Part shown: positions 3,059 through 49,211 of the stretch, piece by piece
How the letters are laid out: each line of letters opens with the position of its first letter
Numbering within the stretch: position 1 is the stretch's first letter
NCBI GenBank assembly: GCA_938015295.1
Contig: CALLQB010000003.1
Location: 27,640 to 91,639 of the forward strand
Length of the DNA: 64,000 bases
Direction of reading: 5' to 3'
Source of the DNA: an uncultured Acidimicrobiales bacterium
GTDB taxonomy: Bacteria > Actinomycetota > Acidimicrobiia > Acidimicrobiales > SHLQ01
Notes under the pieces: generated by a model
The model's input: the letters and a program-made list of their open reading frames with translations, nothing else
Databases searched by the model: none
What the model was told of the DNA's origin: nothing
Program-made: the position numbers and the translations under genes

Positions 3059-3917
3059 ACCAGCGAATTCTCCTTTTGAGGAGGTTCCGGTCGGCGGGAC
3101 GACGTTGGAGACTTTTGACTTCAACAGTCGGGGCGACAGTGTCGCTCTCGAGCCCGTGTTCCGTTCACGCCCCTCAGGCAAGCTTCTCACCTCAATCGGA
3201 TTGGTTGCGTTGGTCATCACGGCACTTTGTGCCGAGGTTGCCTACGTAGTCGCCGACCTGCAGCCCAACGTTTGGGCAGCGCGGTCACAGATCCAGTACC
3301 AGGGTGCGACGTGGGTTGAGACCCAGTCTGAGCGTGTCAACAGCCGGAGTCTGCTTGAGCCGATTGCGCTTGCCGAAGGTATCCCGATCGACGAGTTCGA
3401 GGCAGCTTGGACTGGTGGACAGGTACTTGGTACCGAAATCCTGCAGTTTGAGTACGCCAGCGAAGATCCCGATCAGGCTCTTGCCGTCGTCGAGCAGGTG
3501 ACCAACCGTTATCTGGCCGAGTTCCAGGCGGATGCCGACGAGGTCCCAGCGGCGTTGCTTGACTATCAAGCTCTCGAAAAGCAGTACTCCGACCAGATTG
3601 CAGCATCTGCAGCATTGGTCGAAGAGCTGTCTGACGAACTTGGTGCCAATGGGCAACCGAAGCCGGCCTACAATGCTGCGTTGCAGTCGTTGCAGACCGA
3701 CCGAGCCTCGCTCAACGCTGTTCGTTTGCAGATCGCCGGGTTCGGTGTGTTCAACCGGGGAATTCAAACTCCCGAGTTGGTGACCGATCCGTTCTTGCTT
3801 TCGCAACCGGTTGCACCGCTGCCTGGCAAGCGGGCGATCTTCGGACTCATTGGTGGCATGGCCTTGGCGACAGCGTTTGTGTTTGTTGCTCTGCGCATCG
3901 CCGCTACCCGTCGCTGA
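3039..3917 (+). CDS. Wzz/PCP-like polysaccharide chain-length determinant protein (no kinase domain)
   Basis: It has an N-terminal TM helix (LLTSIGLVALVITALCAEVAYVV), a long helical soluble region and a C-terminal TM helix (IFGLIGGMALATAFVFVALRIA). This is the two-TM topology of chain-length regulators, and the gene sits in a polysaccharide cluster. The family call is tentative. Confidence 0.55.
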   Translation: MTSTLDRPANSPFEEVPVGGTTLETFDFNSRGDSVALEPVFRSRPSGKLLTSIGLVALVITALCAEVAYVVADLQPNVWAARSQIQYQGATWVETQSERVNSRSLLEPIALAEGIPIDEFEAAWTGGQVLGTEILQFEYASEDPDQALAVVEQVTNRYLAEFQADADEVPAALLDYQALEKQYSDQIAASAALVEELSDELGANGQPKPAYNAALQSLQTDRASLNAVRLQIAGFGVFNRGIQTPELVTDPFLLSQPVAPLPGKRAIFGLIGGMALATAFVFVALRIAATRR

Positions 3918-6388: not shown

Positions 6389-7483
6389 GTGGCGCTCTGT
6401 GCTGTCGATACGAAAGACACGATGCCCGAGATTGTCGATGTGCTGAACGAGCCTTCCTGGGACCTTGCCGTTGCTGATACCGACGGTGAGCTCTTCCAGT
6501 CGCGCCCGTGGATGCGGTGCCTAGCGGAGACTTTTGGGTTCAACTTTCAAGCATCAGTAGAGCGCGACGATCGTGGGTCGATTGTCGAAGGTATTCCGTT
6601 CGTTCGCATCGATGACCTTCGGGGGCCCCGGACTGTCGTGCTGCCTTTCAGCGACTATGTGTTACCCCTGGTCGCAGACGATCTTTCGTGGAAGTGCCTA
6701 GTCGAACCACTACTCGCCTTTGGCGACCCGGTGATCGTGCAAACCTCGGCCGATTCGTGCGTGGCCCGAGATGGTCGATTTGTCCCTGATCTCGAAACGA
6801 TCCGCCACGCTGTGGCCTTCGATGCCGACCGCGAGACAATTGTCGCTCGATTCGGACAACAACCACGCCGCCACATTCGCAAGGCCGAGAAGTCCGGCCT
6901 TACGTTTCGGATGGCAAACACGCGGGCCGAACTGCAGAGCTTCTATGACCTGCACTTTGGCGTTCGAAAGTACAAGCACCAGCTGTTGTGTCAGCCCTTT
7001 GCATTGTTCGAATCGCTTTGGCGAAACTTCATCGCCGACGGCGATGGCGGCGTCATGCTCGGTTTCGATGGAGACGTAGTCGCCGGTGGCTGCCTGCTGC
7101 TTGAAGCAGGGGAGACCCTTTACTATAAGTACAGCGCCTCGCATCCTGACTACCGCAGCAAAGGCGTCAGTCATGGCGCTGTGATGGGTGCAATTGACTA
7201 TGGCCTCGAGCAAGGTCTTTTGCGCCTGGATTTGGGTCGTAGCGACCTTGAACCGTCTGGGCTTGTCGATTTCAAGCGCCGCTTCGGCTCCACGTCTTCG
7301 ACCCTGATGCGTTTTTGTCACCTACCCGCTGGTACCCCCGACGCCCCGCTCTGTCACCATGGCGACGCATTCGACGACGCTGGTGAACTCCTTACCGAAC
7401 TTACCGAGCTCTTCGTCGATCCGCTGGTGCCCGACGAGTTGACGATGCAGGCCGGCGAACGCCTGTACCGTTACTTTGCCTGA
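6389..7483 (+). CDS. FemAB/BioF2-like GNAT-superfamily acyltransferase
   Basis: 364-aa ORF. The segments RHIRKAEKSGLTFRMA...FYDLH...K and GGCLLLEAGETLYYKYSASHPDYRSKGVSHGAVMGAIDYGLEQGLLRLDLGRS...GLVDFKRRFG resemble FemAB-like/CelD-type acetyltransferase domains. An alternative start is ATG 6422. Confidence 0.65.
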   Translation: MALCAVDTKDTMPEIVDVLNEPSWDLAVADTDGELFQSRPWMRCLAETFGFNFQASVERDDRGSIVEGIPFVRIDDLRGPRTVVLPFSDYVLPLVADDLSWKCLVEPLLAFGDPVIVQTSADSCVARDGRFVPDLETIRHAVAFDADRETIVARFGQQPRRHIRKAEKSGLTFRMANTRAELQSFYDLHFGVRKYKHQLLCQPFALFESLWRNFIADGDGGVMLGFDGDVVAGGCLLLEAGETLYYKYSASHPDYRSKGVSHGAVMGAIDYGLEQGLLRLDLGRSDLEPSGLVDFKRRFGSTSSTLMRFCHLPAGTPDAPLCHHGDAFDDAGELLTELTELFVDPLVPDELTMQAGERLYRYFA

Positions 7484-14897: not shown

Positions 14898-16778
14898 GTG
14901 ACCTCCTCTGCTACCGCGCCTGCGGCCCCCCTCGCTACTCGCGACGACATCCGAAACATCGCCATCATTGCCCACGTCGACCACGGCAAGACCACGCTCG
15001 TCGACGGCATGCTGCAGCAAGCGGGCGCCTTCGGCGACCACAAAGAGATGGACGATCGAGTCATGGACTCGATGGATCTTGAAAAAGAGAAGGGCATCAC
15101 CATCGAGGCCAAGAACACCTCGATCCGCTGGGGCGACACGAAGATCAACGTCGTCGACACCCCTGGTCACGCCGACTTTGGTGGCGAGGTCGAACGTGCG
15201 CTCACCATGGTCGATGGCGTGCTGCTGCTGGTCGATGCCAGCGAGGGTCCGCTGCCCCAGACTCGTTTCGTGCTGCGCAAGGCGCTTACTGCCGACTTGC
15301 CGGTCGTGGTCGTCATCAACAAGATCGATCGTCCCGATGCACGTATCGCCGAGGTCGTTTCGGAGGTCGAAGACCTGTTCCTCGACGTCGAAGCCGAAGA
15401 ACATCAGATCGATTTTCCCATCGTCTACACCGTTGCTCGAGAAGGCCAGGCCACGCTCGACCTCGCGACGCCGGGTACCGATCTCAACCCGCTGTTCGAA
15501 GCGATCCTCGAGCGAGTTCCTGCCCCGAGCTACGAGCCTGGCCACCCGCTCCAGGCTTGGGTGACCAACCTGGGCGCATCTCCCTATGTTGGCCGTTTGG
15601 CGATCTGTCGCATCATGAACGGCGAAATCAAGAAGGGTCAAGCTGTTTCGTGGTGCAAGGCCGATGGCACCATCGAGGCCGCCAAGATCACCGAACTCTA
15701 CGCAACCGAGAGCCACGAACGCGTCGAGATTGACTCGGCCTTCGCCGGCGAACTTGTCGCCGTCGCCGGTCTACCCGGTGTCACCATCGGCGAAACTCTT
15801 GGAGACCCCGGCGAAGGTCGGCCGATGCCGGTTATCTCGGTGGATGAGCCAAGCCTGTCGATGACCGTTGGTATCAACACCTCGCCGATCTCTGGTCGCA
15901 GCGGTAGCAAGCTCACCGCACGTCAGGTCAAAGATCGTCTCGACAAAGAACTCGTCGGTAATGTCTCGCTCCGAGTCCTCGATCTCGACCGACCCGACGC
16001 TTGGGAAGTGCAGGGCCGTGGCGAACTCCAGCTTGCGGTTCTGGTCGAGATCATGCGCCGAGAAGGCTTCGAGCTGACCGTCGGAAAACCACAGGTTGTT
16101 ACCCGAGAAATCGACGGCAAGTTGCACGAGCCGGTCGAACGCGTGTCGATCGATATTCCCGAAGAGCATGTCGGGGGCGTCACCCAACTTCTCGCTCCGC
16201 GCAAAGGCCTGATGCAAGAAATCGTCAACCACGGCACCGGTTGGGTTCGTCTCGACTACCGCATTCCGGCTCGTGGGCTCATTGGTTTCCGCACCGACTT
16301 TCTCACCGAAACTCGCGGTACCGGCATTATCAACCATGTCTTCGACGGCTGGATGGTGTGGCAGGGTGAAATTCAGGCTCGTCATCGTGGCTCGATGGTC
16401 GCCGACCGAACCGGCGTCGCTACCAGCAACGCGATTTTGAACCTGCAGGAACGTGGCCTGTTCTTTATCGGCGTTGGCGCAGATGTGTACGAAGGCATGA
16501 TCGTCGGCGAAACACCGAAGCTCGGCGACATGGACGTCAACATTTGCAAAGAGAAGAAGCACACCAACGTTCGCGCCGCCGCCGCTGACGAAACCGTGCG
16601 ACTCACGCCGCCGAAGGTCATGTCGCTCGAGCAGTCTCTTGAGTTCATCGGCGACGACGAGTGCATCGAAGTCACCCCGGATGAAATCCGGCTCCGTAAA
16701 GTCGATCTCGACGCCACCGTTCGTCACCGCAACATGAAGAACCTCAAGAAGTCGCGCGACGGCGCCGACCAAAGCTGA
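14898..16778 (+). CDS. typA: translational GTPase TypA/BipA
   Basis: 626 aa. It has the G1 motif IAIIAHVDHGKTTLVD, DTPGHADFGGEV and NKIDR, and the overall EF-G-like length and C-terminal domain typical of BipA. Confidence 0.95.
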   Translation: MTSSATAPAAPLATRDDIRNIAIIAHVDHGKTTLVDGMLQQAGAFGDHKEMDDRVMDSMDLEKEKGITIEAKNTSIRWGDTKINVVDTPGHADFGGEVERALTMVDGVLLLVDASEGPLPQTRFVLRKALTADLPVVVVINKIDRPDARIAEVVSEVEDLFLDVEAEEHQIDFPIVYTVAREGQATLDLATPGTDLNPLFEAILERVPAPSYEPGHPLQAWVTNLGASPYVGRLAICRIMNGEIKKGQAVSWCKADGTIEAAKITELYATESHERVEIDSAFAGELVAVAGLPGVTIGETLGDPGEGRPMPVISVDEPSLSMTVGINTSPISGRSGSKLTARQVKDRLDKELVGNVSLRVLDLDRPDAWEVQGRGELQLAVLVEIMRREGFELTVGKPQVVTREIDGKLHEPVERVSIDIPEEHVGGVTQLLAPRKGLMQEIVNHGTGWVRLDYRIPARGLIGFRTDFLTETRGTGIINHVFDGWMVWQGEIQARHRGSMVADRTGVATSNAILNLQERGLFFIGVGADVYEGMIVGETPKLGDMDVNICKEKKHTNVRAAAADETVRLTPPKVMSLEQSLEFIGDDECIEVTPDEIRLRKVDLDATVRHRNMKNLKKSRDGADQS

Positions 16779-20937: not shown

Positions 20938-22083
20938 TCAGCGAAGCTCAGAAAATGGGACGACGGCAGCCTGCGGGGTGACGATGTCGCCCTCGGGAAG
21001 CACAAACCGCCAGAACGCAATGCCGAGGTTTCGGCCCTCGGTATCAATCCAATTCGGGTGGCCGGGGTCTTGGTGAGCAAGAACCATCTTGAACGTGCCA
21101 TCGGGTTCGAGTGTCGTCTGCTTGCGGTTGAGTCCCACCCGGCGGTTGCGGAAGTCGAGCGTTTGCTGCCAACGCGTCCAAAGGCAGAGATAGCCGGCTC
21201 GACACTCGGGCCACTCGCCGGTAATCACCAACGCTTCGTCGTCGGCGATGTAGTACGGCGCGAGAGAGTAGGCAGCGTCGGCAAAGGAGAGGAAGTGGTC
21301 GCCGGGGGGCTGCGGAGGCGGGAACTCGTTGATCGTCGTTCCGGCGAACCCCGGACGTTCCTTGGTGCCGGGGGCTCCCATCTCGATGGTGCGAGCGCTC
21401 AGGAATTTCGCGACCCGTCGGATTCCCTCGGCGATTGAAGCGTCGTTTGGAGGAGCCGGTGCAGGCTGAGGCTGGGTGGTCTCGATAGACAGGTTCACCG
21501 GAAGATTTTCGTCGCTCGCCGCGTATTCCTCGTTCTCGGAGTAGTGGCGAATGGTGAGGCTTGATGCATTGGGGTCGAGTTCAAGCCAGTTGCGTTCTTG
21601 GGGTTCTCCGCCAACAAAGACTTCGAAATTTCCCTCCGCGTCGATGTCGAGATCGGCATCGCCGATTACCCCGGCGGTACGTTCTGGTGTGCCACCGTCG
21701 GACCCGCCGACTTCGACGGTGACCGACAGGTAGACGCCACCGGCCATGTTGCCGCGCACGACGTAGGAGTACTCGGCTGAGACCGGGGCTTCAAAGTACA
21801 GGGCGTCGGGGTTGTCGCCGGTGAACTTGCGAAACGGCGAGACGATCTTGCGAAACTCTGGTGATGAGGGGTCGCGTTCGAACGCGCTGAACAGCCCGCC
21901 CTGGAGCATGTGCATCATCGACCGGTGCGCGCCGGCGACGTCTTCGGGTGATCCGATCATCCATTCGGCGCTGGCGTATCGCCGGTCGACTTCTTCGAGG
22001 GTGTCGATGAGTTCGCGTAGCGCCGTTCGGCTTTGCGAAGCGATTGCCTCTGGTGCAGCGGTGGTGGTTGGTTCTTCAGCCAT
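20938..22083 (-). CDS. DUF1214-like protein of unknown function (paralog of 13552..14784; assignment tentative)
   Basis: 381 aa. It shares its architecture and segments with the other copy: DDEALVITGEWPEC versus [14 protein letters not shown], and GHPNWIDTEGRNLGIAFWRF versus [20 protein letters not shown]. Confidence 0.55.
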   Translation of the reverse strand: MAEEPTTTAAPEAIASQSRTALRELIDTLEEVDRRYASAEWMIGSPEDVAGAHRSMMHMLQGGLFSAFERDPSSPEFRKIVSPFRKFTGDNPDALYFEAPVSAEYSYVVRGNMAGGVYLSVTVEVGGSDGGTPERTAGVIGDADLDIDAEGNFEVFVGGEPQERNWLELDPNASSLTIRHYSENEEYAASDENLPVNLSIETTQPQPAPAPPNDASIAEGIRRVAKFLSARTIEMGAPGTKERPGFAGTTINEFPPPQPPGDHFLSFADAAYSLAPYYIADDEALVITGEWPECRAGYLCLWTRWQQTLDFRNRRVGLNRKQTTLEPDGTFKMVLAHQDPGHPNWIDTEGRNLGIAFWRFVLPEGDIVTPQAAVVPFSELR

Positions 22084-24186: not shown

Positions 24187-25662
24187 ATGTCTCGCCCCCG
24201 CTTGTCGCAACTCGTTTTGGTCGTGCTGTTGCTGGTCTTGTCGGCCTGTTCGAGTACCGCCGCGCCCCGCGGTGAGAGCGATGATGCCAGTGTCCCAAAC
24301 GCAGAAACGGCCGCCGCCGTGGCTGCGAATACCACTGGTGAGGCATCCAGTACGAACGACGAGACCGCGAGTGAAGCCGAAAGCGAGAGTGCCGACGAGC
24401 CAGCAACGCTCGTGCGGTATGAAGAGGGCGACGCCGACTACATCTTCGACCAAGAAGCGCTACACACCTTCGAATTGTCACTTTCCGAAGACGACCTGGC
24501 GTTTCTCGACGCCGACCCAACCGCCGAGGAGTACGTCGAAGGCAGCCTGAGCTTTGAAGACGAAACCGTCGCGAAGGTTGGCATCCGCTACAAAGGGTCG
24601 ATCGGGGCGTTCGTGAACTGTCTGACCGGCGCAAACCCGCTGCAACCCAGTGGCGCGAAGAAGTGCACCAAACTCTCGATGAAGGTGAAGATCAACTGGG
24701 GCGACAACCCCGACCAGAAGTTTTACGGCCTCAAGAAGCTGCAGCTGCACTCGATGAACTTCGACCAGTCGCAGATGCGCGACCGCCTTGGCTATTACCT
24801 CTTTCGAGAGATGGGGGTTCCCGCTCCGAGGGCGACACACGCCCGAGTGATGATCAATGGCGAATACATCGGTTTGTTTGCGCTCATCGAGCAGATCGAT
24901 GGCCGCTTTACTCGCGAGGCCTTCGACGACGGAACGGGCAATCTCTACAAGGAAGTGTGGCCTGTCGATCTCAACGGCGACGTGATCGACGACGACGGAT
25001 TCCGCAAAGGCCTCAAGACCAACGAAGATGAAGATCCTTCGTTTGAGATTCTTCGTTCGTTCGCCGAGGAAGTCGTCTAGGCTGGTGCCGACGGCGCACC
25101 AGCAGTCGTTGAGAAACGGATGGATCTGGAGGAGATCATTTCCTACGTTGTTGTCGACCGTACGATTCGCCACGACGACGGACCCTTCCACTTCTACTGC
25201 TTCCGGACGCCGTGTTTTAACCACAATTACTACTTCTACGAGCAGCCCACCGATCGAACAGTGCATCTCATTGCCTGGGATCTCGACAACGCGTTTGAAA
25301 ACATCGTGCGCGACGCGAATCCCATCACCCCATTGGCAGATGCGTTCGGCGAGACATCTGGCGACTGTAAACCGGTGCCGTATGGTGCCTTCCAAGTGCC
25401 GCAGATCTCGGCGGCATGCGACCCCATTATTGCCGCGTGGGCCACCTTCGACGACGAGTACGATCGCCTGTTGCAGAAGTTTCTCGACGGCCCCTTCTCC
25501 GAAGACAACGTCAATACGATGCTCGACACTTGGAGTGCCCAGATTGCCGAGGCGACAGCAGAAGCTCACGAAACCCATGCCGGGGCGCTAGCGGTAACCA
25601 CTTGGCAAAGCGCCATCACGAGTTTGCAGGCGGCCCTCGAAGTCGCCCGCGCTGGGCAATAG
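24187..25662 (+). pseudogene. CotH-family atypical protein kinase lipoprotein interrupted by a single in-frame TAG (25078..25080)
   Basis: ORFs 24187..25080 and 25120..25662 are in the same frame with one stop between them (...SFAEEVV*AGADGAPAVVEKRMDLEE...). Together they make one CotH domain: KLQLHSMNFDQSQMRDRLGYYLFREMGVP, INGEYIGLFALIEQIDG, NLYKE, HNYYFYEQP...IAWDLDNAF. The signal peptide has the lipobox LVLSAC. Confidence 0.7.
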
Positions 25663-37902: not shown

Positions 37903-38307
37903 ATGTCTAACAACCCTGCTGAGAACACTGCTGAGAACGCTGCTGAGAACACTGCCCTGACGACTCGCTGGATTACCGAAATGGGGATGGGTGTCGACGT
38001 GCACGGCCACGACTACACCAAGGCTGCGAGGCGCGCTGTTTCTGATGCTCTGCGGCACAGCAGCCTGAACTTCTTTCGGGCGACCAACAAGACCGTGCAC
38101 GACATGTTTGTCGAGGTGCGAATTGGCGTCCAACGCCCCGACGACGTCGACCTTGCCGCGGTGGCTGAAGAGGTGCCCTACGGGACAGTGACCGTCACTG
38201 CGCAGATGGGTGGACTCGATGTTGCGGCCGAACCGAGCGACAACCGGCCGGCGGGTGACGGCATCGTCATTGCGAACGCGGCGATTTTGGTGAGCTTTAC
38301 CGACTAG
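37903..38307 (+). CDS. Lin0512-family protein (conserved, function unknown)
   Basis: ORF track 37825..38307 trimmed to ATG 37903. The core EMGMGVDVHGHDYTKAARRAVSDAL matches my memory of the Lin0512 family. The N-terminus carries the AENT/AENA/AENT repeat. Confidence 0.5.
   Translation: MSNNPAENTAENAAENTALTTRWITEMGMGVDVHGHDYTKAARRAVSDALRHSSLNFFRATNKTVHDMFVEVRIGVQRPDDVDLAAVAEEVPYGTVTVTAQMGGLDVAAEPSDNRPAGDGIVIANAAILVSFTD
37918..37953 (+). repeat. 3 x 12-nt tandem repeat GCTGAGAAC(A/G)CT
   Basis: Read directly. It is in frame within the N-terminus of the Lin0512-type gene, 76 nt from the divergent BVMO start. Confidence 0.85.
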
Positions 38308-38343: not shown

Positions 38344-39450
38344 CTACGGCGTGAACTTGGGGTAATAATTTGCGGCGCCCATCGCTTGTACATCGCTGAC
38401 CCACTCGCTGTCGTAGGGCCAGGCTTCCTCGTTGCCATCTTGTGGGCCTTGCCAGAACCGGGCGAACGCACCTTCGCCTCCGGGTTCAAGCGACCACGCC
38501 TGACGGCGATACGCGAAGTTGTCGGGAACCAGTTGGTGCGCTTGGCGGAAATGCGGCACGGCGGCATCGTGTTTGCCAGCCTGTTCAAGGTGGGCGGCCA
38601 TGGCGAAGTGCGCCGCACCAGTCGACGTGTCGGCGCTTCGTGGCTGCGAACGTTCGATGACCTGATCGGCTGAAAGTGCGTAGACACTTTCAGCGCCGTT
38701 GGTTACCCAGTCCCGAAGTGCCGCCTCATAGGCCGCCGGGTCGCTTTCGATATTGACCGCTTCGGCCATGATGGCCTGCGCCCGGTCGGGAAATTCGGTC
38801 ATGCCCTCAAAGGGGTTGGTGCGCGGCACATCGATTGACGGCGGCGCCGGAGCAGCCTCGGCCGGACGAACGATCATGCCGTCCTCGTCGATCCAGACGC
38901 TGTTGGGGATGTTGATGATGCCGAACTGACTTGCCACGACGTGGTTGGCATCGATAAGCGACGGATGCTCGGGCTTCGCAGCCTCGATGAAGTGTCGACA
39001 TGCTTCGGCTCCAGCGGTATCCATGCCGACGGTGACGACTTCGAGGCCGTGGGGGTGAAGTTCGTTGCGGAGTGCCTGCCACACGGGCAGGTCGCCGGAG
39101 CAACCTCAATACGGTGACCACGCGACCATCAACACCTTGCTGCCTCGAAGCGATTGGAGCTCGAAGGTAGTGCCATCGAGACGGGGCAGGGTCAGGTTTG
39201 GCGCGACTGCGGTGGCCAGAGCTCGTCCACCCGGTGCCGCTGGTCCAAGGGCCCAGAGATCGTTGTCCTGGTCGTGAACCAACGCAAGGCCGAGCTGGTC
39301 GGCCAGCTCGTCGAGCTGCACCGTGTCGCCAACTGGGGGAGTAGCGAGCGGGATGCAGATTTCGCCTTTGCAGGCCCCTTCGGGTTTGAGTTCCCAACCC
39401 GTGCCTTCTTCGAAGGCAGAGCGGGCGACGGTTAGCGAGTCCGAGATCAT
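38344..39450 (-). CDS. ResA/TlpA-like thiol-disulfide oxidoreductase, probable selenoprotein (in-frame TGA at 39106..39108 read as Sec), with N- and C-terminal extra domains
   Basis: ORFs 39106..39450 and 38344..39084 share one frame. The junction reads ...KVLMVAWSPY-TGA-GCSGDLPVWQALRNEL.... The stop sits at the nucleophilic-Cys column of the redoxin motif, and a SECIS-like hairpin follows. Confidence 0.65.
39068..39097 (-). promoter_or_regulatory. candidate bacterial SECIS stem-loop
   Basis: On the mRNA, the CCUGCC/GGCAGG stem with loop CGUGU (39075..39091) has its apical loop starting 20 nt after the UGA. It can be extended by CGG/CCG pairs across an internal loop. Confidence 0.45.
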
Positions 39451-39574: not shown

Positions 39575-40417
39575 ATGAACGCTCGAAACAAGCTGGTGCT
39601 CGATCGGCTTACGCCCGCGTTGGGTGCCGAGGTTTCCGGGCTGCGTCTCGACGGCGAAATCGACGAAGCACTGGCCGACGAAATATACGGCGCGCTTATC
39701 GATCACCAAGTGCTGATCTTTCGCGATGCCGACCTCTCGCCGGCGACCATGGTCGGCCTAGCGAACAGCTTCGGCGAGCTTGGTGCGCGCCATCACTCCT
39801 ACGTCACCCATCCAGAGAACGACGATGTTGTCATCCTCGAGTGGAAAGACGACGACCGGCCCGACGCTGCTGAGTGGCACGCAGACATGACCTATCGCGC
39901 CCAGCCGCCCTTTGGGACGATTCTTAAAGCTGTCGTGGTGCCGCCGTCGGGCGGCGACACCTTATGGGCCAGCATGTACTCGGTGTACGACGCCCTGTCT
40001 CCCGGGCTGCGCGACGACCTGTCAAAGCTCGAGGCCGTGCATGACATGGGCGCCTTTCGCACCCCGGCGTATCTCGAGGGCGGCAACGATGGCATTCAAG
40101 CTGCGCTGCAGGGTGCGGGTACTGCAGTGCACCCGGTGATTGCTCACCACCCGGTATCCGGGCGACCGTACCTCAACGTCAGCGAGTCCTTTACACGCTT
40201 CGTTATCGGGCTTTCGGCTCCCGAGGGCGGCCGCTTGTTGACCGAACTGTTCGACCTGATCAACCGGCCAGAACATCATGTTCGACTCCGCTGGAAGCCC
40301 AACACCGTGGCGATTTGGGACAACCGCGGCACACAGCACTATGCGTGCGCCGACTATCTGCCGCAGCGTCGGGTCATGCATCGAGTGGCGGTTGTTCGCG
40401 ACGGGCGGGTCGACTAA
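39575..40417 (+). CDS. TauD/TfdA-family Fe(II)/2-oxoglutarate dioxygenase
   Basis: ORF track 39323..40417 trimmed to MNARNKLVLDRLTPALGAEVSGL. It has the H-x-D facial-triad segment EWHADMTY, GGDTLWASM, and C-terminal WDNRGTQHYA. Confidence 0.85.
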   Translation: MNARNKLVLDRLTPALGAEVSGLRLDGEIDEALADEIYGALIDHQVLIFRDADLSPATMVGLANSFGELGARHHSYVTHPENDDVVILEWKDDDRPDAAEWHADMTYRAQPPFGTILKAVVVPPSGGDTLWASMYSVYDALSPGLRDDLSKLEAVHDMGAFRTPAYLEGGNDGIQAALQGAGTAVHPVIAHHPVSGRPYLNVSESFTRFVIGLSAPEGGRLLTELFDLINRPEHHVRLRWKPNTVAIWDNRGTQHYACADYLPQRRVMHRVAVVRDGRVD

Positions 40418-41517
40418 GACGTCGCCCGCTCGGCGGTGAAGGCCTCGACGGCCTGCTCGAAGGCATCGGCGACCCTCGCCAACGCGGAGGGCGTTGTTGC
40501 TGCCTCGGGTGTGTCCTCTGGCGTGTGGAAGTGGATTCCGGCGCCGCTAAATGACAGCAGGGGTACGCCAACCTGTGACCAGGACTGCCCTTCGCCGACC
40601 CAGCTCGTACATGACGTTGTGAGGTTGAGGCCGATCTCGGCGAGCGCCCGAGTGACCGAACCCGATTCGTCGGAGCTTGAGGTTAAGGCCAAGCGCGTTG
40701 TCGCCAAATCGTCTGTGCCCGGGTCGACTACGGCGACGGAGGCGCCGACGTGAATGATGGCAGATACGGCGGGTGGCTGGTTGTCGACCCAGTGTTGCGC
40801 TCCGAACCAGGTGAGCTCGTGTCCGCCGGTGCCGACGACGATGATGTCGCGGTCGGCGAAACGGTCGAGAAGATCGAGGGTGACGGCGATGCCGGTGCCT
40901 CGTTCGCCTGCACAGCCGAACCAGCCGTTGAGCGGCGTGGTGATCATAAGTGGTGGCTTCGTTGCCTTGGCCTTGTTGCTACCGGTGACGTTGTTCGTGA
41001 ATCCGGGCTGCTCGGTGGCCTCGATCTCGAGGCGGCACTGGCCGCCAAGCACGCGTTCGCTGTCGCGTCCGGCGACCAGAACGGTCGGAAACCCCGATCC
41101 TTGGCCGATGATGCGGTTGATCGCGACGAGTGAACCGTCGGGGTGGTCGGTAGCGAGCACAAGGGCGTCTGCTCCCTTGGCCTGAGCGCGCGCAATTGCC
41201 TCCGAGAGGACCTCTGGATGTCCGCCGCTGCGCGGATCGATGACCTCGATGTGCAGACGGTCGGTCTGGAGTTGACCAGTCCACTCGTAGAACACTGGCA
41301 GGTGATCGATTGGCTTGCCACCGACGAGCAATTCGCTCGAAGACGTCCACTGCGAATACTGAACTCGATTGGTTTCCGTGGCGAATCCGCGGGTCGCGAG
41401 GTGTCCGGCAAACCACGACGCGGTGGCGTCGTCGACCTCAGTGCCGGTGCGATGAATGCCGAGATCGAAGTACTGCTCGACGAGTTCGAACAACGTGCTG
41501 CCGGACGCACCACCCAC
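40414..41517 (-). CDS. hypothetical protein, weakly M28-peptidase-like
   Basis: 367 aa. The only recognisable pieces are IVVGTGGHELTWFGAQHW and a C-terminal GIHFHTPEDT reminiscent of M28 family ends. Zinc-ligand motifs are not evident. Confidence 0.35.
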   Translation of the reverse strand: MGGASGSTLFELVEQYFDLGIHRTGTEVDDATASWFAGHLATRGFATETNRVQYSQWTSSSELLVGGKPIDHLPVFYEWTGQLQTDRLHIEVIDPRSGGHPEVLSEAIARAQAKGADALVLATDHPDGSLVAINRIIGQGSGFPTVLVAGRDSERVLGGQCRLEIEATEQPGFTNNVTGSNKAKATKPPLMITTPLNGWFGCAGERGTGIAVTLDLLDRFADRDIIVVGTGGHELTWFGAQHWVDNQPPAVSAIIHVGASVAVVDPGTDDLATTRLALTSSSDESGSVTRALAEIGLNLTTSCTSWVGEGQSWSQVGVPLLSFSGAGIHFHTPEDTPEAATTPSALARVADAFEQAVEAFTAERATS

Positions 41518-42133: not shown

Positions 42134-43834
42134 TCAGCCGGCTTTATCGTCCAGCGCGAGAGTTGCGTACGAAAGGGGACGGTTTCCGGCATCTCGTTTG
42201 TGGGCGTACATCGCGGCATCTGCCTCGGCGATGAGCTTGTCGGGATCGGTCGCCACCGTGGTAGTCGCTGCAGCCAGGCCGTTGTCGTGAAGGATATGCG
42301 AGTAGCCGCACGACGCGACGATTGGTGGGAGCGTGGGAGCGTCGGCGTCGAGGTCGTTGACGGCGTCGAGTAATCGTTGTGCCAGCGCGGCGACCTGATC
42401 GGCCGTGGTTTCCGGACAGATGACAATGAATTCATCGCCGCCAAGACGTCCGACGATGTCGGAGTCGCGCGCAGCGCCAGCGAGACGGTTTGCTGTCTCT
42501 TGCAAGAGCTCGTCGCCGATCGCATGCCCGAATGCATCATTTATGGCCTTAAAGCCGTTGAGGTCGAAATAGATCGCGCCAGTTCCGATCGAGCGCCGGT
42601 CTCGGAGAGCCTCGGCAAGACCGGTATGTACGGCGGCGCGGTTGGCCACGCCGGTCAGGTCGTCACGATCGGCGCGGCGTGCCAATTCCACACGAAGCAA
42701 CCACTCATCGGTGATGTCGTCGACACAAATCAGTAGACCGTTCGCACCCTGTTCGTCGACCGCCAGACTTCGCAACGAAAGCCGCACATGGCGGGTGGTG
42801 CCGTCTTTGCGGTGCAGCGTTGCTTCGAGGTTGAAGTCGCTGCCTTCTGCATAGGCGGATTCCGCGACCTCGGTAACCAATTGTTGGGTGTCGACGTCGA
42901 AAAGCTCAAGGTACGAACGAAGTACCGGATGGTGCACGCCAGTAATTTCGTCGAGTCGATCGTTGGCAAAGAGGAGAGCTCCGTGCCGATCGAAGTGCAC
43001 GACGCCGCTGGGCAGAGCATCGGTGAGCCGCAGCAGTAGTTCTTCGCGGGCCCGCAGCTCAGAAAGCGCCTGCATCTCAACCGAAATGTCGAGCAGTTCG
43101 ACCAAAACATAGCCTTCGGCGGCGAGAAGGTTGGTCTCTGTCGACTCGAACCACCGCCATTCGCCCGCAGAAGTTTTGTACTGGGTTCGACCGCGAAGCG
43201 TGCCACCCTCGGTTTGGAGGACATGCAGCCAGCGCGAAACCGCTGTGTCGACGTCGGAGGGGTGCATGCGGTCGAGCCCGGATTGCCCAACGAAGGACTC
43301 CTTGGTCCAGCCCATGAGTGTCTGAGCAGAGGGGTCGAAGGTGAGCGCGACTCCGGCAGCGTCGGCTCGGTAGACGATACGCCGAGGTGCGACCGCCTCG
43401 TCGAACGCGGTGGTTCGCTCGGTCGTTGCGCTGTCATCGGGAACACAGATGAAGACAAAGATGGGGTCGACGCCTACCACGTCGTTCCAATGGTCGACCC
43501 GCAAGGTGTGGCAACGCTGCAGCACGGAAGGGTTGTCGACAAGACGCGTTGCACTGACGCATTCGCCGTTCATACGCGCCTGATAGAACATTCCGACTGC
43601 ATCGATGCGTTGTTCTGCAGCGACGAGATCGACCGGGGTCGGCGGTTGGCGAAAATTGGTGAAGAGTTCAGCTAGCCAGTCGGGGGGCGCGAGAGTTTCG
43701 GTGCCCTGGGCATTGCTGATCATGACAACCGCATCGGGATGGGCCATGGCGAGTTCGGCAATCTTGGTTCTCGCGGCTTCGCCCATGCGTGTTGTATCGG
43801 CGATACCGTCGGTAAGCTTTACTCGATAGGCCAA
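42134..43834 (-). CDS. PAS-domain diguanylate cyclase (GGDEF)
   Basis: The C-terminal GGDEF domain has DDLTGVANR, FDLNGFKAINDAFGH and RLGGDEFIVI, preceded by PAS-like repeats. The start is at 43834 (16-nt overlap with the upstream gene) or at ATG 43786. Confidence 0.9.
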   Translation of the reverse strand: MAYRVKLTDGIADTTRMGEAARTKIAELAMAHPDAVVMISNAQGTETLAPPDWLAELFTNFRQPPTPVDLVAAEQRIDAVGMFYQARMNGECVSATRLVDNPSVLQRCHTLRVDHWNDVVGVDPIFVFICVPDDSATTERTTAFDEAVAPRRIVYRADAAGVALTFDPSAQTLMGWTKESFVGQSGLDRMHPSDVDTAVSRWLHVLQTEGGTLRGRTQYKTSAGEWRWFESTETNLLAAEGYVLVELLDISVEMQALSELRAREELLLRLTDALPSGVVHFDRHGALLFANDRLDEITGVHHPVLRSYLELFDVDTQQLVTEVAESAYAEGSDFNLEATLHRKDGTTRHVRLSLRSLAVDEQGANGLLICVDDITDEWLLRVELARRADRDDLTGVANRAAVHTGLAEALRDRRSIGTGAIYFDLNGFKAINDAFGHAIGDELLQETANRLAGAARDSDIVGRLGGDEFIVICPETTADQVAALAQRLLDAVNDLDADAPTLPPIVASCGYSHILHDNGLAAATTTVATDPDKLIAEADAAMYAHKRDAGNRPLSYATLALDDKAG

Positions 43835-45252
43835 CCCGAAAGTGATTTCACTTCCAGGAAGTCTTCGATGCCGTAACGGCCTCCCTCGCGGCCGTTACCC
43901 GATTGCTTGTAGCCGCCAAACGGTGCGTTCGGTGCTCGACCTGAGCCATTGATTTGCACCACCCCGGCACGAATCTGCCGGGCAAGTCTCTGTACTCGCT
44001 CGCGGTCGTGTCCTTGGATATACGCGGCGAGGCCGTACGGCGTGTCGTTGGCCATTTCGGCCGCCTGCTCATCGGATGCGAACTTGCTGATCGCAAGCAC
44101 TGGACCAAAGATTTCTTCGTGCCAGATGGTCATGTCCGGGGTGACGTCGGCAAAGACGGTGGGCCGCACAAACCAGCCCTTGTCCAAGCCTTCGGGGCGG
44201 CCGACGCCGCCCGCAACCAGCCGGGCGCCTTCGTCGATGCCAACTTGGATCAGATGCTGAACTTTGTTGAATTGGGCCTCTGACACGAGTGGTCCGAGGT
44301 GACGCCCTTCTTCGGAGGCAACATTTACTTCGGTCGCGTTTGCGGCCGCAGCAGCAAGTTCGACAGCCTCGTCGTAGGCATCGTCCTCAACCAACATGCG
44401 GGTGGGGGAGATGCACGATTGGCCGGTGTTGTTGAAGCACATGCCAACGCCTGCCGGCACCGAGGCCTCGATGCCGGAATCGGCAAAGATGACGTTGGGA
44501 GATTTGCCACCGAGTTCGAGTGACACCCGTTTCACAGTGTCGGCAGCCGCCTTACTGATAGCCATGCCAGCGCGGGTTGAGCCAGTGAAGGAGATGAGGT
44601 CGACCTCGGGATGGCTGGTGAGCGAGGTTCCGGTTCCGGCGCCGTCGCCCTGGATGAGGTTGAAGACTCCCGCAGGGATGTCGGCCTCGTCACAGAACTC
44701 GGCAAACAGCGCTGCCGAGACCGGAGCGATTTCTGAGGGCTTGAGCACCATCGTGCAGCCCGCAGCCATAGCGGCTCCGACCTTCAGGCAGATTTGGTTC
44801 ATCGGCCAGTTCCACGGAGTGATCAATGCGGCTACGCCCGCTGCTTCGAGAGCCACGAGGTGCTCGGGGCCATTGAGTTCACGAGTGAATTCCATCGCTG
44901 CGAGTTCTTTGGCGAACGTCTTGAGGTGGCCGAGGCCAACGGGCGCCTGCGCCCGGCGAGAGAGGTCGAGCGGGGCGCCCATCTCTTCCGAAATCGTTAC
45001 CGCCATTTCGTCTGCGCGAGCTTCGAACACAGCGATGAGACGCTCGAGGGCGGCGACACGCTCGCTCGGATCGGTGGTCGACCAGCTTGGGAACGCACGG
45101 CGGGCGGCCATGACCGCTTGGTCGACCTCGTCGGCTGAGGCCCAGGCTGTCTCGGTGAACTGCTCCTCTGTGGAGGGGTTGAAAACCGCCTGCCGTTCGG
45201 AAGTCGCAGGTTCCTGCCATTGGCCGTCGATGTAAAAGCTGCTGCTGTTCAT
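43819..45252 (-). CDS. NAD(P)-dependent aldehyde dehydrogenase
   Basis: 477 aa. Motifs: WNWP, FTGSTRAG, ELGGKSP, the catalytic Cys segment NTGQSCISPTR, and EEIFGPV. Confidence 0.92.
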   Translation of the reverse strand: MNSSSFYIDGQWQEPATSERQAVFNPSTEEQFTETAWASADEVDQAVMAARRAFPSWSTTDPSERVAALERLIAVFEARADEMAVTISEEMGAPLDLSRRAQAPVGLGHLKTFAKELAAMEFTRELNGPEHLVALEAAGVAALITPWNWPMNQICLKVGAAMAAGCTMVLKPSEIAPVSAALFAEFCDEADIPAGVFNLIQGDGAGTGTSLTSHPEVDLISFTGSTRAGMAISKAAADTVKRVSLELGGKSPNVIFADSGIEASVPAGVGMCFNNTGQSCISPTRMLVEDDAYDEAVELAAAAANATEVNVASEEGRHLGPLVSEAQFNKVQHLIQVGIDEGARLVAGGVGRPEGLDKGWFVRPTVFADVTPDMTIWHEEIFGPVLAISKFASDEQAAEMANDTPYGLAAYIQGHDRERVQRLARQIRAGVVQINGSGRAPNAPFGGYKQSGNGREGGRYGIEDFLEVKSLSGWPIE

Positions 45253-45323
45253 CCGTTCAGTCTAGAGGAGGAGGTAGAGCAGCTCGCTGGCAGGTCGTGC
45301 TGATTCCCGCCTGTCGGATGCGG

Positions 45324-46841
45324 TCACGGGTCGCCGTCGCCGATTTGTTCCTTGCGTCGGGCGACGTAGTCGTCGAGTTGATCGGCACGCGCGCTATCGA
45401 GAGCCGGCTCGACGTAGTCCTCGAGAGCGTCCTGCCAGACCTTCGTCGCCCGTTGGGTGGCGGTGAGCGCTCCCGAGTCGGTCCACGCTCCATGGTTCTG
45501 CCAGTCAGAGATCATCGGGGCGTAGAAGGCGTCGGTGTAGCGGGCAAGCGTGTGCTCATCGCCGAAGAAGTGGCCGCCAGTTGGGACTCGGCTCATCGCG
45601 TCGAAGGCCAAGGCGTCGTCGGAGAGATCGATTGGGGTGAGGAACTCCATCATGTGTTGCAGCATCTCGACGTCGAGCACCAGTTTTTCGTAGCTGGCCT
45701 GCAGGCCGCCTTCCATCCATCCCGCAGCGTGGTAGATGAGGTTGGTGCCGCCGAGCACACAACCCCATAGCGACATTTGGGTTTCGTACGCCGCTTGCGC
45801 ATCGACGACGTTCGAGGCGCTGGAGTTCGATGCCCGGTAGGGGAGGTCGTAGCGCCTCGCGAGCTGACCAGCGGCCACGTTGGCCTTGGCGTGTTCGGGC
45901 GTGCCGAAAGCTGGCGACCCCGACTTCATGTCGACGTTCGAGGTGAAGGAGCCGTACATGACCGGCGCTCCGGGGCGGGTAAGTTGCGTGAGCGCAATGC
46001 CGAACAGGGCTTCGGCGTTCTGTTGGGTCAGTGCTGCGCCGAGGGTCACCGGGGTCATCGCTCCCATCAACGTGAACGGCGTGACCGATACCGCCTGACC
46101 GTGTTCGGCCATCGTCATAAGACCCAACGCCATCTCCTCATCGAACCGGCGGGGTGAATTGACGTTGATGATGGTCGTTACGCCGGGAGACTCGGCCATC
46201 TCTTCGATGCTGATGCCGCGGCTGATGGCCATCATCTCAATGCCGTCGAGGGCTCGGCCGCGGCCGATGGACAAGCAGTGAAAACTGAGGTCCGACAGGG
46301 TGAGGTTGGCCCGGTAGGCATCGAGATGTCGACTGTTGGCGGGAAGCTCGAGAGGCGAGGCCACCTGATTGCCGATGATGTGAATGGCGTTGAAATAGTG
46401 GGCGAGACGGATGAAGTTTTCGTAGTCGTCCATATTCGACGGCCGACGGCCCCGCACCTCGTCGTGGACGCTCGGCGGCCCCGCGACCAGGCCAAAGGCT
46501 AGGTGGTTGCCGCCCATGGTCAGCTCTTTGTCGGGGTTGCGTGACGTAAGAGTGAACGAGCTTGGCGTGGAAGCCAGGGCAGCTTCGATGATGTCGCGCC
46601 CAACCCGTACGGTTTCGCCCTCGACGATCGCACCTGCGTCGGTGAAGAGTTTCCTGGCTTCGGCGCTCCACAGTTCGATGCCGAGCTCTTCGAGAATACG
46701 CAGCGACGCCTCGTGGATCCGCTCGACGCCTTCGGGGTCGAGAATAGGGAGCGTTCCGTGCGGATTGGTGACCTGTCGCCAGGGGAGTTGGGCGACCTTT
46801 GCTTGTGGACCGGTTGACCGTGGGCGACCTCGACGGGTCAC
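45324..46841 (-). CDS. MttB-superfamily methyltransferase, non-pyrrolysine type (quaternary-amine/betaine methyltransferase-like)
   Basis: 505 aa with a basic N-terminus, then LPILDPEGVERIHEASLRILEELGIE...ARKLFTDAGA, typical of trimethylamine methyltransferase family proteins. There is no internal TAG. Confidence 0.8.
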   Translation of the reverse strand: MTRRGRPRSTGPQAKVAQLPWRQVTNPHGTLPILDPEGVERIHEASLRILEELGIELWSAEARKLFTDAGAIVEGETVRVGRDIIEAALASTPSSFTLTSRNPDKELTMGGNHLAFGLVAGPPSVHDEVRGRRPSNMDDYENFIRLAHYFNAIHIIGNQVASPLELPANSRHLDAYRANLTLSDLSFHCLSIGRGRALDGIEMMAISRGISIEEMAESPGVTTIINVNSPRRFDEEMALGLMTMAEHGQAVSVTPFTLMGAMTPVTLGAALTQQNAEALFGIALTQLTRPGAPVMYGSFTSNVDMKSGSPAFGTPEHAKANVAAGQLARRYDLPYRASNSSASNVVDAQAAYETQMSLWGCVLGGTNLIYHAAGWMEGGLQASYEKLVLDVEMLQHMMEFLTPIDLSDDALAFDAMSRVPTGGHFFGDEHTLARYTDAFYAPMISDWQNHGAWTDSGALTATQRATKVWQDALEDYVEPALDSARADQLDDYVARRKEQIGDGDP

Positions 46842-46843
46842 CC

Positions 46844-48178
46844 TCAGCTCCAGGGGTATGGGCTGTTTGAGACCGGGTGGAGGTTGCCTTCGGCGTAGCG
46901 GCTGTAGCGGAAGGGTTCGAGTAGCGCTTGTGTGTCGCCCTCGAGTTCCTTGGCAACCAGCGCCCCGACGCCGAGCATTTTGTAGCCGTGGTTCGAGTCG
47001 CAGATGAAGTACGCGTTTTCGGCAAAGGTGTCGAAAACCGGAAAGCTATCGGGGGTGAAGCTGCCGATGCCGCCTGACGGCTCTTGTTTGATCAGGTGAC
47101 TTTTGCCTTCGAACCGTTTGTGACAGTGCGCCAATGCTGCTGTCCAGGTGCGGTAGAAATCGCCTCCGACGACGAAGTCGGGCGAATCGGGGCCGTAGGG
47201 ATCGACCGCTACTTCGAGTGCTGGCTTGTCGACGATGTAGGGCATATAGCCGCCTTGCACGCCACCAAAGGAGAAGTCGGGTTTGTAGTAGATGCCCCAC
47301 GGGCCTTCGGTGACTAGTGCTCCGTCGTCGTCGTAGAGGGGGGCGTCGGTGTCGATGTGAATCACGGGCGGCATGTTGCCCTCGTTGTCGACGAGGAAGC
47401 CCGGGTCGACACCGAGCACGCCTTCTTGCAGAGCCCAGTAAGTCCAGGTGTTGGTGTCATGCATCTGACCGTCGGGCCCCTTGACCGCTGTGGTAACTGG
47501 CAGGTCGAGCATCGCCCAGAACTTCTGCACCCATGGTCCGACAGCGACCACGACATGGTCGCAGGCAATGGTTCCCTGGCCGGTAACAACCGCGGTGACC
47601 GCTCCGGATGCGTCGGTGGTGAATTCCTGCACCTCAATGCCGCCGATGACGGCGACGCCCGCCGCTTCGCATTTGCCGAGGAGTCCGGCAAGCGACTTCT
47701 TGTTGTTTGCGTAGCCGCCCTTCTTTTCGTGGAGTACCGAGGTGATGCCTTGGGCTTGCCAGTCGTGGAAAATGTTTTCCATATACAGCCGGGATTCCTC
47801 GGCTCCTTCGACGAAGGTTGAGTCGTAGCCAATGGCTTGTTGTTGTTCGAAGATCGACCGCACGTCGGCTCGCATTCCTTCATGGCTGATCTGCATGTAC
47901 CCAACAGGGTGATAGCTGAACGCTTCGGGGTCGGACTCCCACACGCTGACCGAATGGGCCATGAGTTCGCGCATTGCCGGCTGGAAGTAGTTGTTGCGAA
48001 TGACCCCGCAGGCGATGCCCGACGCGCCCGCACCCACATTGGTTTTGTCGATGACGAGGATGCCCTCGCCCGACCCGCGTTCGCTGGCGAGGTGCAGCGC
48101 GGTGGAGAGGCCGTGGATCCCGGCCCCGACGATGACATGTGTCGCGTTGTGGGGGAGTTTGCTCATGCTACGGATCAT
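46844..48178 (-). CDS. FAD-dependent oxidoreductase (DAO family, sarcosine oxidase beta / amine dehydrogenase-like)
   Basis: It has the N-terminal dinucleotide motif HVIVGAGIHGLSTALHLA. Its length is ~440 aa, and it lies 2 nt upstream of the MttB-family gene. Confidence 0.8.
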   Translation of the reverse strand: MIRSMSKLPHNATHVIVGAGIHGLSTALHLASERGSGEGILVIDKTNVGAGASGIACGVIRNNYFQPAMRELMAHSVSVWESDPEAFSYHPVGYMQISHEGMRADVRSIFEQQQAIGYDSTFVEGAEESRLYMENIFHDWQAQGITSVLHEKKGGYANNKKSLAGLLGKCEAAGVAVIGGIEVQEFTTDASGAVTAVVTGQGTIACDHVVVAVGPWVQKFWAMLDLPVTTAVKGPDGQMHDTNTWTYWALQEGVLGVDPGFLVDNEGNMPPVIHIDTDAPLYDDDGALVTEGPWGIYYKPDFSFGGVQGGYMPYIVDKPALEVAVDPYGPDSPDFVVGGDFYRTWTAALAHCHKRFEGKSHLIKQEPSGGIGSFTPDSFPVFDTFAENAYFICDSNHGYKMLGVGALVAKELEGDTQALLEPFRYSRYAEGNLHPVSNSPYPWS

Positions 48179-48278
48179 GGTGTTGACGCTACGAAACTGT
48201 GTGCCGCTGTCCTATGGCCAATACATAATCTGTGCATAACATTTTTGGTATGAGTCGTAGTTCGTTAGCGTTGTACTC

Positions 48279-49211
48279 ATGCAGATCGAGCAACTTGAGC
48301 TCTACAAGACGGTCGTCGAGAGCGGCGGCATGACCGCCGCCGCTGGGGCGCTAGGAATGAGCCAGCCCGCCGTGAGTCGGTCGATGCGTGCGCTCGAAAG
48401 ACAGCTCGGGGTAGCGCTGTTTCGCAGAGACGGGCGTGGGATTCAGCCAACCGAGGCCGGCCAACTTGCCTACGAGCGGGCGGTCGAACTCACCAACGAC
48501 TGGCGCAATCTCGTCGCCGAGCTGCGCGTGTTGGCTGGCCGGCCAAACGAGGTGACTATCGCGGTCCCGTTTGGCACCGCCCGGGTGCTGATTCCGGTGC
48601 TGGTCCGACGGGCGACCACCGACGTTGCCGACATCGCGGTGCGGATAATCGAATCGGCCTCGCCCAAGAGCCAAGCGATGGTCGACAGCGGAGAGGTCGA
48701 CGCCGCGATCGTCTACCCCGAACCTGAAGATCGCGATGGCGAGGGCCTCGAACATCTGGTGTCGGAGAAGCTGTACGCCATGGGGCAGCCCGACACCTTT
48801 GGTGGTGTGGGGGTGGTTGGCGAAGACGAGAAACCGATCCACCTCGCCGAGCTGGTCGACGTGCCGTTGCTGCTGACCGGGCCGTCGTGGAGCATCCGGC
48901 GAACAATCGACGAGGCGTTTGCGGGCATCGACGCGACCCCGCAGGTCGCGCGAGAGGTCGGAATCGCCGACGCGCTGCTGGCGTTCGCCATGGAAGGCGA
49001 GGGCGTGGCGATTCTGCCGTTCAGTAACGTTGTGCGCGACCATGAGCTCGGGTCTCTTGCGGTGCGAGAGATCAGCAACCCAGCAATCGAGCGCAACATT
49101 TCGATGAAGCTGGGAACCGGCTTGGCCACGGTGGTCGCCGAGGAGCTTCGCGAAGTACTCAGGAGTTCGATTGAAGAAGTTGCGCCCGCGGCCCGATGGT
49201 TTACCGTGTAA
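48279..49211 (+). CDS. LysR-family transcriptional regulator
   Basis: The wHTH segment is MTAAAGALGMSQPAVSRSMRALERQLGVALF. It is ~310 aa long and divergent from the FAD-oxidoreductase/MttB operon. Confidence 0.9.
   Translation: MQIEQLELYKTVVESGGMTAAAGALGMSQPAVSRSMRALERQLGVALFRRDGRGIQPTEAGQLAYERAVELTNDWRNLVAELRVLAGRPNEVTIAVPFGTARVLIPVLVRRATTDVADIAVRIIESASPKSQAMVDSGEVDAAIVYPEPEDRDGEGLEHLVSEKLYAMGQPDTFGGVGVVGEDEKPIHLAELVDVPLLLTGPSWSIRRTIDEAFAGIDATPQVAREVGIADALLAFAMEGEGVAILPFSNVVRDHELGSLAVREISNPAIERNISMKLGTGLATVVAEELREVLRSSIEEVAPAARWFTV

Follow-up and report, generated by a model that had tools for sequence, protein, structure and literature searches.

Two minus-strand open reading frames (ORFs) at 39106..39450 (114 amino acids, aa) and 38344..39084 (246 aa) lie in a 64,000-nucleotide stretch of contig CALLQB010000003.1 (GCA_938015295.1), assembled from an uncultured Acidimicrobiales bacterium and called the window here. 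They share one reading frame and are split by a TGA at 39106-39108 and seven sense codons. Are they two genes, the remains of one, or a single gene in which UGA is read as selenocysteine (Sec)? An initial annotation, made from the sequence alone, had reported the common frame, which the sequence and its translation bear out, and had proposed read-through to a selenoprotein. That proposal is supported by a family match, by an active-site column holding TGA or TGC, by a conserved hairpin and by four independent assemblies. The two ORFs very probably form one intact gene, which encodes a selenocysteine-containing protein of the NF041054 family (Table 1).

The minus-strand codons at the junction are AAG GTG TTG ATG GTC GCG TGG TCA CCG TAT TGA GGT TGC TCC GGC GAC CTG CCC GTG TGG CAG GCA. 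When the TGA is read through as Sec (U), the junction becomes ...VLMVAWSPY-U-GCSGDLPVWQALRNEL..., and the peptide across it in the read-through product is ...WSPY-U-GCSGDLPVWQALR. Gene callers currently split the gene into the 114-aa and 246-aa ORFs. In related genomes, tblastn alignments run over residues 1-368 in one frame.

With Cys in place of the stop, the read-through protein matched NCBIfam NF041054 at 506 bits (E = 5.9e-152; curated cut-off, 300 bits). The alignment was end to end, with residues 1-367 on profile positions 1-353 of 354. This family, short name WAxxUGC_long and described as "ResA-like WAxxUGC motif-containing protein", is already curated as a hidden Markov model (HMM) at NCBI, and the window protein is an additional, clear member. 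The annotation had mentioned an NCBI family name built on WAxxUGC, and such a family does exist. It had also held that the window motif, W-S-P-Y-U-G-C, fits the WAxxUGC pattern; membership is confirmed by the HMM, but position 2 is Ser instead of the Ala usual in the family. Across the Sec forms position 2 is Ala in 79% and Ser in about 21%, and the W, the U/C, the G and the C are invariant. Like other members, the window protein belongs to a three-domain length class (~350-370 aa) and carries the active-site block W-x-x-x-U/C-G-C-x-x-D-L-P-x-W-Q; it differs from them in belonging to a subgroup with a ~15-residue insertion near the C-terminus. A literature search on "WAxxUGC" and NF041054 returned no paper in the searchable library that mentions the family name or accession.

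Another uncultured Acidimicrobiales bacterium (MFD09368.bin.2.121; L025:9992-12206) carries two Sec-form paralogs in tandem, with TGA at 10337 and 11412 and 47% mutual identity. One is of the short W-A-S-Y-U-G-C type; the other is of a W-A-P-Y-U-G-C type with a ~15-residue 'RF.QGP...WP' insertion, as in the window protein. The family is therefore made up of two subtypes or more, and a single genome can carry two of them.

The stop falls at the redox centre of a thioredoxin-fold domain. Pfam AhpC-TSA and Redoxin match residues 82-195, and phmmer against PDB sequences found ResA at E = 4e-10, with Sec115 aligned to the first Cys of the ResA CxxC. The stop thus sits where TlpA/ResA proteins carry their nucleophilic Cys, as had been suggested from the sequence. 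Every alignment to a ResA-type chain has to open a gap of one residue within the motif; the centre is thus U-G-C, with one residue fewer than CxxC. The AlphaFold model of the closest full-length Cys homolog (P0005, 57% identical) is compact, with three domains (predicted local distance difference test, pLDDT, 94.7; predicted template modelling score, pTM, 0.92), and places the Sec-equivalent Cys at the N-terminus of helix 1. Foldseek searches with this model returned ResA first (2f9s, 1st9), with a template modelling (TM) score of 0.75 normalised to the target and a root-mean-square deviation of 1.9 Å; no PDB chain covers more than ~30% of the model.

We then compared the active-site column among homologs, as the annotation had advised. 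A scan of genome DNA, taking one genome per species, gave 79 loci. Counting the window, 67 distinct homologous sequences have TGA in the column, and nine loci have TGC. The TGA forms show 45-80% protein identity and come from several phyla, namely from Acidimicrobiia (the closest, up to 80%), other Actinomycetota, Gamma-, Alpha- and Betaproteobacteria, Myxococcales, Chloroflexota and Binataceae, and include one from a cultured organism, Pseudonocardia kunmingensis DSM 45301. In the protein database, 92 of the 120 best matches are fragments of ~246 aa that start at the same M/V-W-Q just past the stop. The remaining 28 are full-length and 46-57% identical, and all have W-A-x-x-C-G-C. Four independent assemblies of near-identical strains from different samples keep both the TGA and the hairpin described below, with no more than one or two synonymous differences from the window. 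We conclude that the UGA at 39106-39108 is a conserved sense position. As TGA is an ordinary stop for most other window genes, an altered genetic code is not the explanation; no convincing candidate for another TGA-split gene was found in the window.

Most of the Sec-form loci found are from Actinomycetota, and Actinobacteria have been listed among the three phyla richest in selenoprotein families (PMC1794560). Both points contradict the remark in the annotation that selenoproteins other than formate dehydrogenase are unusual in high-GC Gram-positive lineages. At two of the Sec-form loci (L059:~7200-7478 and L068:~1330-1433) the open frame 5' of the TGA is short, or the sequence there is unrelated and rich in Arg and Ala, which suggests a frameshift or an assembly problem in the N-terminal domains on those contigs of metagenome-assembled genomes (MAGs).

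Downstream of the TGA the transcript can form the hairpin CCUGCC/CGUGU/GGCAGG, which resembles a bacterial selenocysteine insertion sequence (SECIS). The annotation had placed this hairpin twenty nucleotides (nt) after the TGA. Its sequence and its position at 39075-39091 were correct, but only the apical loop begins 20 nt past the TGA and the stem begins at 14 nt. A published set of criteria for bacterial SECIS elements (bSECIS) calls for a loop of 3-9 nt, an upper stem of 4-16 bp, a G in the first two loop positions, a UGA-to-loop distance of 16-37 nt and a minimum free energy no higher than -7.5 kcal/mol (PMC13188914). The window element agrees with all four bSECIS constraints (5 nt, 6 bp, G at position 2, 20 nt, -9.3 kcal/mol, the last for the 17 nt folded alone), and judged on the 17-mer alone the criteria are also passed by 60 of 66 sequences. 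The spacing and the G/U-containing loop had been taken in the annotation as typical of a bacterial SECIS, and both these criteria and the conservation of the RNA agree. Hairpins of such geometry and strength with an early loop G occur 13 times in 128,000 window positions, from which ~0.002 would be expected to follow any one codon at an allowed spacing; the hairpin is unlikely to have arisen by chance alone. When the 76-nt region was folded whole, as a single sequence, the result was not significant (z = -0.67); it is on the comparative data that the case rests.

An ungapped alignment of 66 distinct sequences from the TGA to +63 (alignment A1) gave, with RNAalifold, a single consensus structure, a 6-bp stem and a 5-nt loop at columns 18-34. 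Stem cells are paired in 99.2% of cases, compared with 23-70% when the 3' arm is slid by one to three columns. All changes in the stem keep pairing (four C-to-U changes and one A-to-G, all of which give G.U), and the outer pair is C-G (56), U-A (4) or U-G (3). The apical loop is CGUGU (43), CGGGU (19) or GGUCU (4), with the G at position 2 and the final U invariant. The constraint is also visible at synonymous sites. The Leu codon at +6 is CTG in 67 of 67 Sec forms (0 bits), whereas five or six codons occur at other columns of conserved Leu (1.8-2.0 bits). Likewise, the Pro codon at +7 is CCC in 94% of the Sec-form sequences that have Pro there, and wherever Gln stands at +10 (66 sequences) its codon is CAG. 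Among the nine Cys-form loci the Leu at +6 is written with three codons, CTC being the commonest, and in seven of the nine the corresponding 17 nt have folding energies of only 0 to -1.9 kcal/mol. The 17-nt hairpin is conserved as RNA, and only where the codon is UGA. Because Pro at +7 is far commoner in Sec forms (94%) than in Cys-form proteins (13 of 27), the RNA element also constrains the peptide.

Like the SECIS of E. coli fdhF, the element is a coding-region hairpin closely 3' of the UGA with a small loop in which a G is followed by U or G, at a distance of 16-37 nt (PMC13188914). Unlike it, the conserved element here is a minimal 17-nt hairpin without a conserved lower stem or bulge. 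The CGG/CCG pairs by which the annotation had extended the stem do form in the window sequence; across homologs they are paired in 49.5% of cases, no better than shuffles, and the extension is not conserved.

Other explanations of the split have to be set against these data. A TGC-to-TGA nonsense mutation in a Cys-type redoxin gene would make the locus a pseudogene; a single substitution lies between the two codons, Cys-form homologs exist and gene callers do split the gene. Yet the TGA is common to 67 distinct sequences from several phyla at 45-80% protein identity, both halves are in frame, conserved and free of the further lesions that the annotation had named as a sign of decay, strain variants differ only synonymously, and the hairpin 3' of the TGA is under synonymous constraint. 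These comparative data effectively refute the pseudogene, to which we give hardly any weight. The source is a metagenome-type assembly, in which a Cys codon could have been turned into TGA by sequencing or assembly error, and the annotation had worried that resequencing might restore TGC or TGT. This has practically no chance of being right, given that identical TGA and hairpin recur in the four independent assemblies from different samples and that a TGA stands in the same column in dozens of unrelated MAGs and in one isolate genome. Sequencing error and a recent pseudogene are thus excluded by the conservation of the TGA in protein and DNA homologs, across taxa and in the four assemblies.

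It is likewise very improbable that two separate polypeptides are made, 114 aa ending at the TGA and 246 aa from a GTG at 39084, perhaps as a split redoxin. ORF callers give exactly these products in many genomes, but the stretch of seven codons from the TGA to the GTG carries the invariant G-C as well as the conserved active-site residues D-L-P, and the presumed start codon falls within the loop of the conserved hairpin. A split here would cut the thioredoxin fold at the catalytic helix, and the Cys forms are single chains. The UGA might also be read through without Sec, either by a near-cognate insertion of Trp or Cys or in a lineage that has lost Sec decoding and keeps the hairpin as a relic. 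For this speaks the lack of any Sec machinery found in the window and related loci; against it, the hairpin has SelB-type features, with an invariant G at loop position 2 and fitting spacing, it is kept by selection in the closest relatives and in the strain variants, and the only alternative residue in the column is Cys, the hallmark of Sec/Cys pairs. We consider such readthrough improbable, and retain the reading of a Sec-decoded single gene.

Several observations nevertheless weigh against that reading or limit it. No selA, selB, selD or tRNA-Sec gene was found in the 64-kb window, as is expected for a small slice of a genome. ARAGORN detected no tRNA-Sec in the window, where tRNA-Val is the only tRNA, or in 60 related loci; Pfam gave no SelA, SelB or SelD among all window ORFs of at least 300 aa and in precomputed Pfam results for 28-49 kb; and tblastn with E. 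coli SelA, SelB and SelD against the window and 83 loci (1.34 Mb) returned only generic GTPase similarity. The Sec machinery genes are not linked to the selenoprotein gene in the window and related loci. Covariation in the hairpin is thin, with double changes in one pair only; since the stem is nearly invariant, synonymous-site constraint is the stronger evidence for a SECIS. Rfam gave nothing relevant at the gathering threshold for the window or at a permissive E-value for the site, which is uninformative as Rfam has no model of such a bSECIS. The Cys-form DNA control consists of nine loci only, seven of them from one clade, and the full-length structural model is that of P0005 and not of the window protein itself. 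There is no conserved neighbourhood, no neighbouring family being present at more than 13 of 80 loci or consistently adjacent, and hence no clue to an operon or pathway. Lastly, the selenol/thiol chemistry proposed below is inferred.

The only SelB-like tblastn match in the window, a translational GTPase at 14898-16778 on the plus strand, was rejected; it is a TypA/BipA homolog with a BipA_C domain.

Table 1. Positions of the selenoprotein gene, its recoding elements and its domains in the window
Feature	Position	Strand	Details
Complete selenoprotein gene (very probable)	38344..39450	minus	368 aa + TAG; ATG 39448-39450, TAG 38344-38346; sole in-frame interruption is one TGA
UGA very probably read as selenocysteine (Sec115), nucleophilic residue of the redox centre	39106..39108	minus	TGA/TGC column; ResA alignment; four assemblies
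Cys117, partner cysteine of the U-G-C centre	39100..39102	minus	Invariant in 28/28 full-length sequences and 67/67 Sec-form DNA sequences
Predicted bacterial SECIS mini-hairpin	39075..39091	minus	6-bp stem 39086-39091/39075-39080; loop CGUGU 39081-39085; encodes D-L-P-V-W-Q-A
N-terminal domain (aa 1-75)	39226..39450	minus	Invariant G-W...G-A-C27-x4-C32-x-P; C27 39370-39372, C32 39355-39357
Thioredoxin-fold (ResA/TlpA-like) catalytic domain (~aa 80-198)	38857..39213	minus	Pfam, phmmer, Foldseek
C-terminal all-helical domain (~aa 215-368)	38347..38808	minus	One TPR-like repeat ~279-311; P0005 model, helices 220-355

By analogy with the established bacterial mechanism, the hairpin would act as a SECIS bound by SelB.GTP.Sec-tRNA(Sec), which would deliver Sec at the UGA instead of termination. 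The product would then be a selenol/thiol oxidoreductase. On chemical grounds Sec115 would attack a substrate disulfide, a mixed disulfide or an oxidant, and Cys117 would resolve the intermediate by closing a strained selenenylsulfide. For CxC centres the published potentials are relatively oxidising (CGC peptide, -167 mV; thioredoxin CGC mutant, -200 mV; YphP, -130 mV; PMC3173608), and for this reason an isomerase-, de-thiolating- or peroxidase-type role is more likely than that of a thioredoxin-like bulk reductase.

Like ResA, TlpA, StoA and DsbE (CcmG), which give the best sequence and structure matches, the window protein has this subtype of thioredoxin fold with the nucleophile at the equivalent position. 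Those proteins are membrane-anchored and extracytoplasmic and have CxxC, whereas the window protein has no anchor, a U-x-C centre and two extra domains, and it scores far below the ResA, StoA and TlpA cut-offs (54.3 vs 170, 33.9 vs 210 and 30.5 vs 230, respectively). Hydropathy in 19-residue windows reaches a maximum of 0.93 overall and 0.02 at the N-terminus, and no hydrophobic segment, membrane anchor or signal peptide was seen. Since it lacks a hydrophobic segment, the protein should be soluble and is very probably cytoplasmic.

The bacilliredoxins BrxA/BrxB (YphP/YqiW) share a C-G-C type centre on a thioredoxin-like fold, but they are single-domain Cys proteins, unlike the three-domain window protein, which matches their HMM (TIGR04191) at 16.7 bits (E = 0.0063), below the 100-bit cut-off. 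Another resemblance is to the "Prx-like thiol:disulfide oxidoreductase" selenoproteins (PF00578) of the Sargasso Sea and Global Ocean Sampling (GOS) surveys, which have a Sec-containing thioredoxin fold with a Pfam AhpC-TSA match, Sec in the first redox position and a coding-region SECIS downstream (PMC1088965, PMC13188914). Their published description does not include the N- and C-terminal domains of the window protein. They are listed only with UxxC or UxxU in a 2026 review (PMC13188914), and a single UXC sequence was tabulated in 2005 (PMC1088965, Table 3).

The N-terminal domain had been estimated at ~100 aa, and the models reduce its extent to ~75 aa. Residues G18, W19, G25, A26, C27, C32 and P34 are invariant (alignment A2), and at least 65 of the 67 Sec forms have the C-x4-C pair. 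In the models the fold begins at residue 2. When the domain was modelled alone from the window sequence (AlphaFold), it had a pLDDT of 90.5 and the C-x4-C pair was placed on a beta-hairpin. No significant match was found among PDB folds (best E, 1.3). A search of 1.84 billion representatives gave 338 clusters, essentially all of them pre-TGA fragments or full-length Cys forms of the NF041054 family. Its occurrence in other architectures was considered and rejected, the outliers being either chimeric or wrongly called ORFs, or giant repeat proteins whose matches are weak and partial. Two such giants, P0131 (4214 aa; DUF7507, SdrD_B-like) and P0254 (4133 aa), match residues 18-63 of the domain 7 and 25 times, respectively, each time weakly and in part; either composition or a shared small beta-hairpin unit containing Cys may lie behind these matches.

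For the C-terminal helical domain, matches to Pfam tetratricopeptide repeat (TPR) models are weak and below the cut-off, and phmmer against PDB gave a weak match to MamA. A relay, a metal site and a structural feature are all conceivable roles for the C27/C32 pair. A tentative idea, which we regard as possible and rather doubtful, is that the protein is a cytoplasmic three-domain selenoenzyme in which the contracted U-x-C centre works with the C-x4-C pair of the orphan domain, as an intramolecular redox relay or a metal- or selenium-handling site, with partner binding by the TPR-like domain and a new substrate.

Merging the two hypothetical ORFs with Sec at codon 115 corrects the annotation of this gene, and most metagenome-derived records are split in the same way. 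The window's Acidimicrobiales lineage very probably decodes selenocysteine. The locus is also a clean example of a minimal coding-region SECIS, in which the RNA constraint is visible as frozen synonymous sites and a forced D-L-P-V/G-W-Q peptide. The NF041054 family is widespread in several phyla and present in one cultured actinomycete, and its U-x-C centre and orphan C-x4-C domain are reasonable targets for enzymology and structural work.

The selenoprotein gene has as neighbours a TauD-family gene (39575-40417), in divergent orientation, and a Lin0512-family gene (37903-38307), in convergent orientation. A scan for promoters and terminators found none, which is uninformative for the lineage. 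Elsewhere in the window, the region 43819-49211 contains an intact MttB-superfamily gene on the minus strand (45324-46841; PF06253; 505 aa, free of in-frame TAG), together with genes for an aldehyde dehydrogenase (43819-45252), for a DAO-family oxidase (46844-48178) and, in divergent orientation, for a LysR regulator (48279-49211), and looks like a non-pyrrolysine MttB-type cluster for quaternary-amine demethylation. Four coding-like minus-strand ORFs of 366-413 aa have no Pfam match at E <= 1e-5 (1979-3220, 20938-22083, 24478-25578 and 40414-41517). The last of these lies 1 kb from the selenoprotein gene and adjoins an ACT-domain gene.

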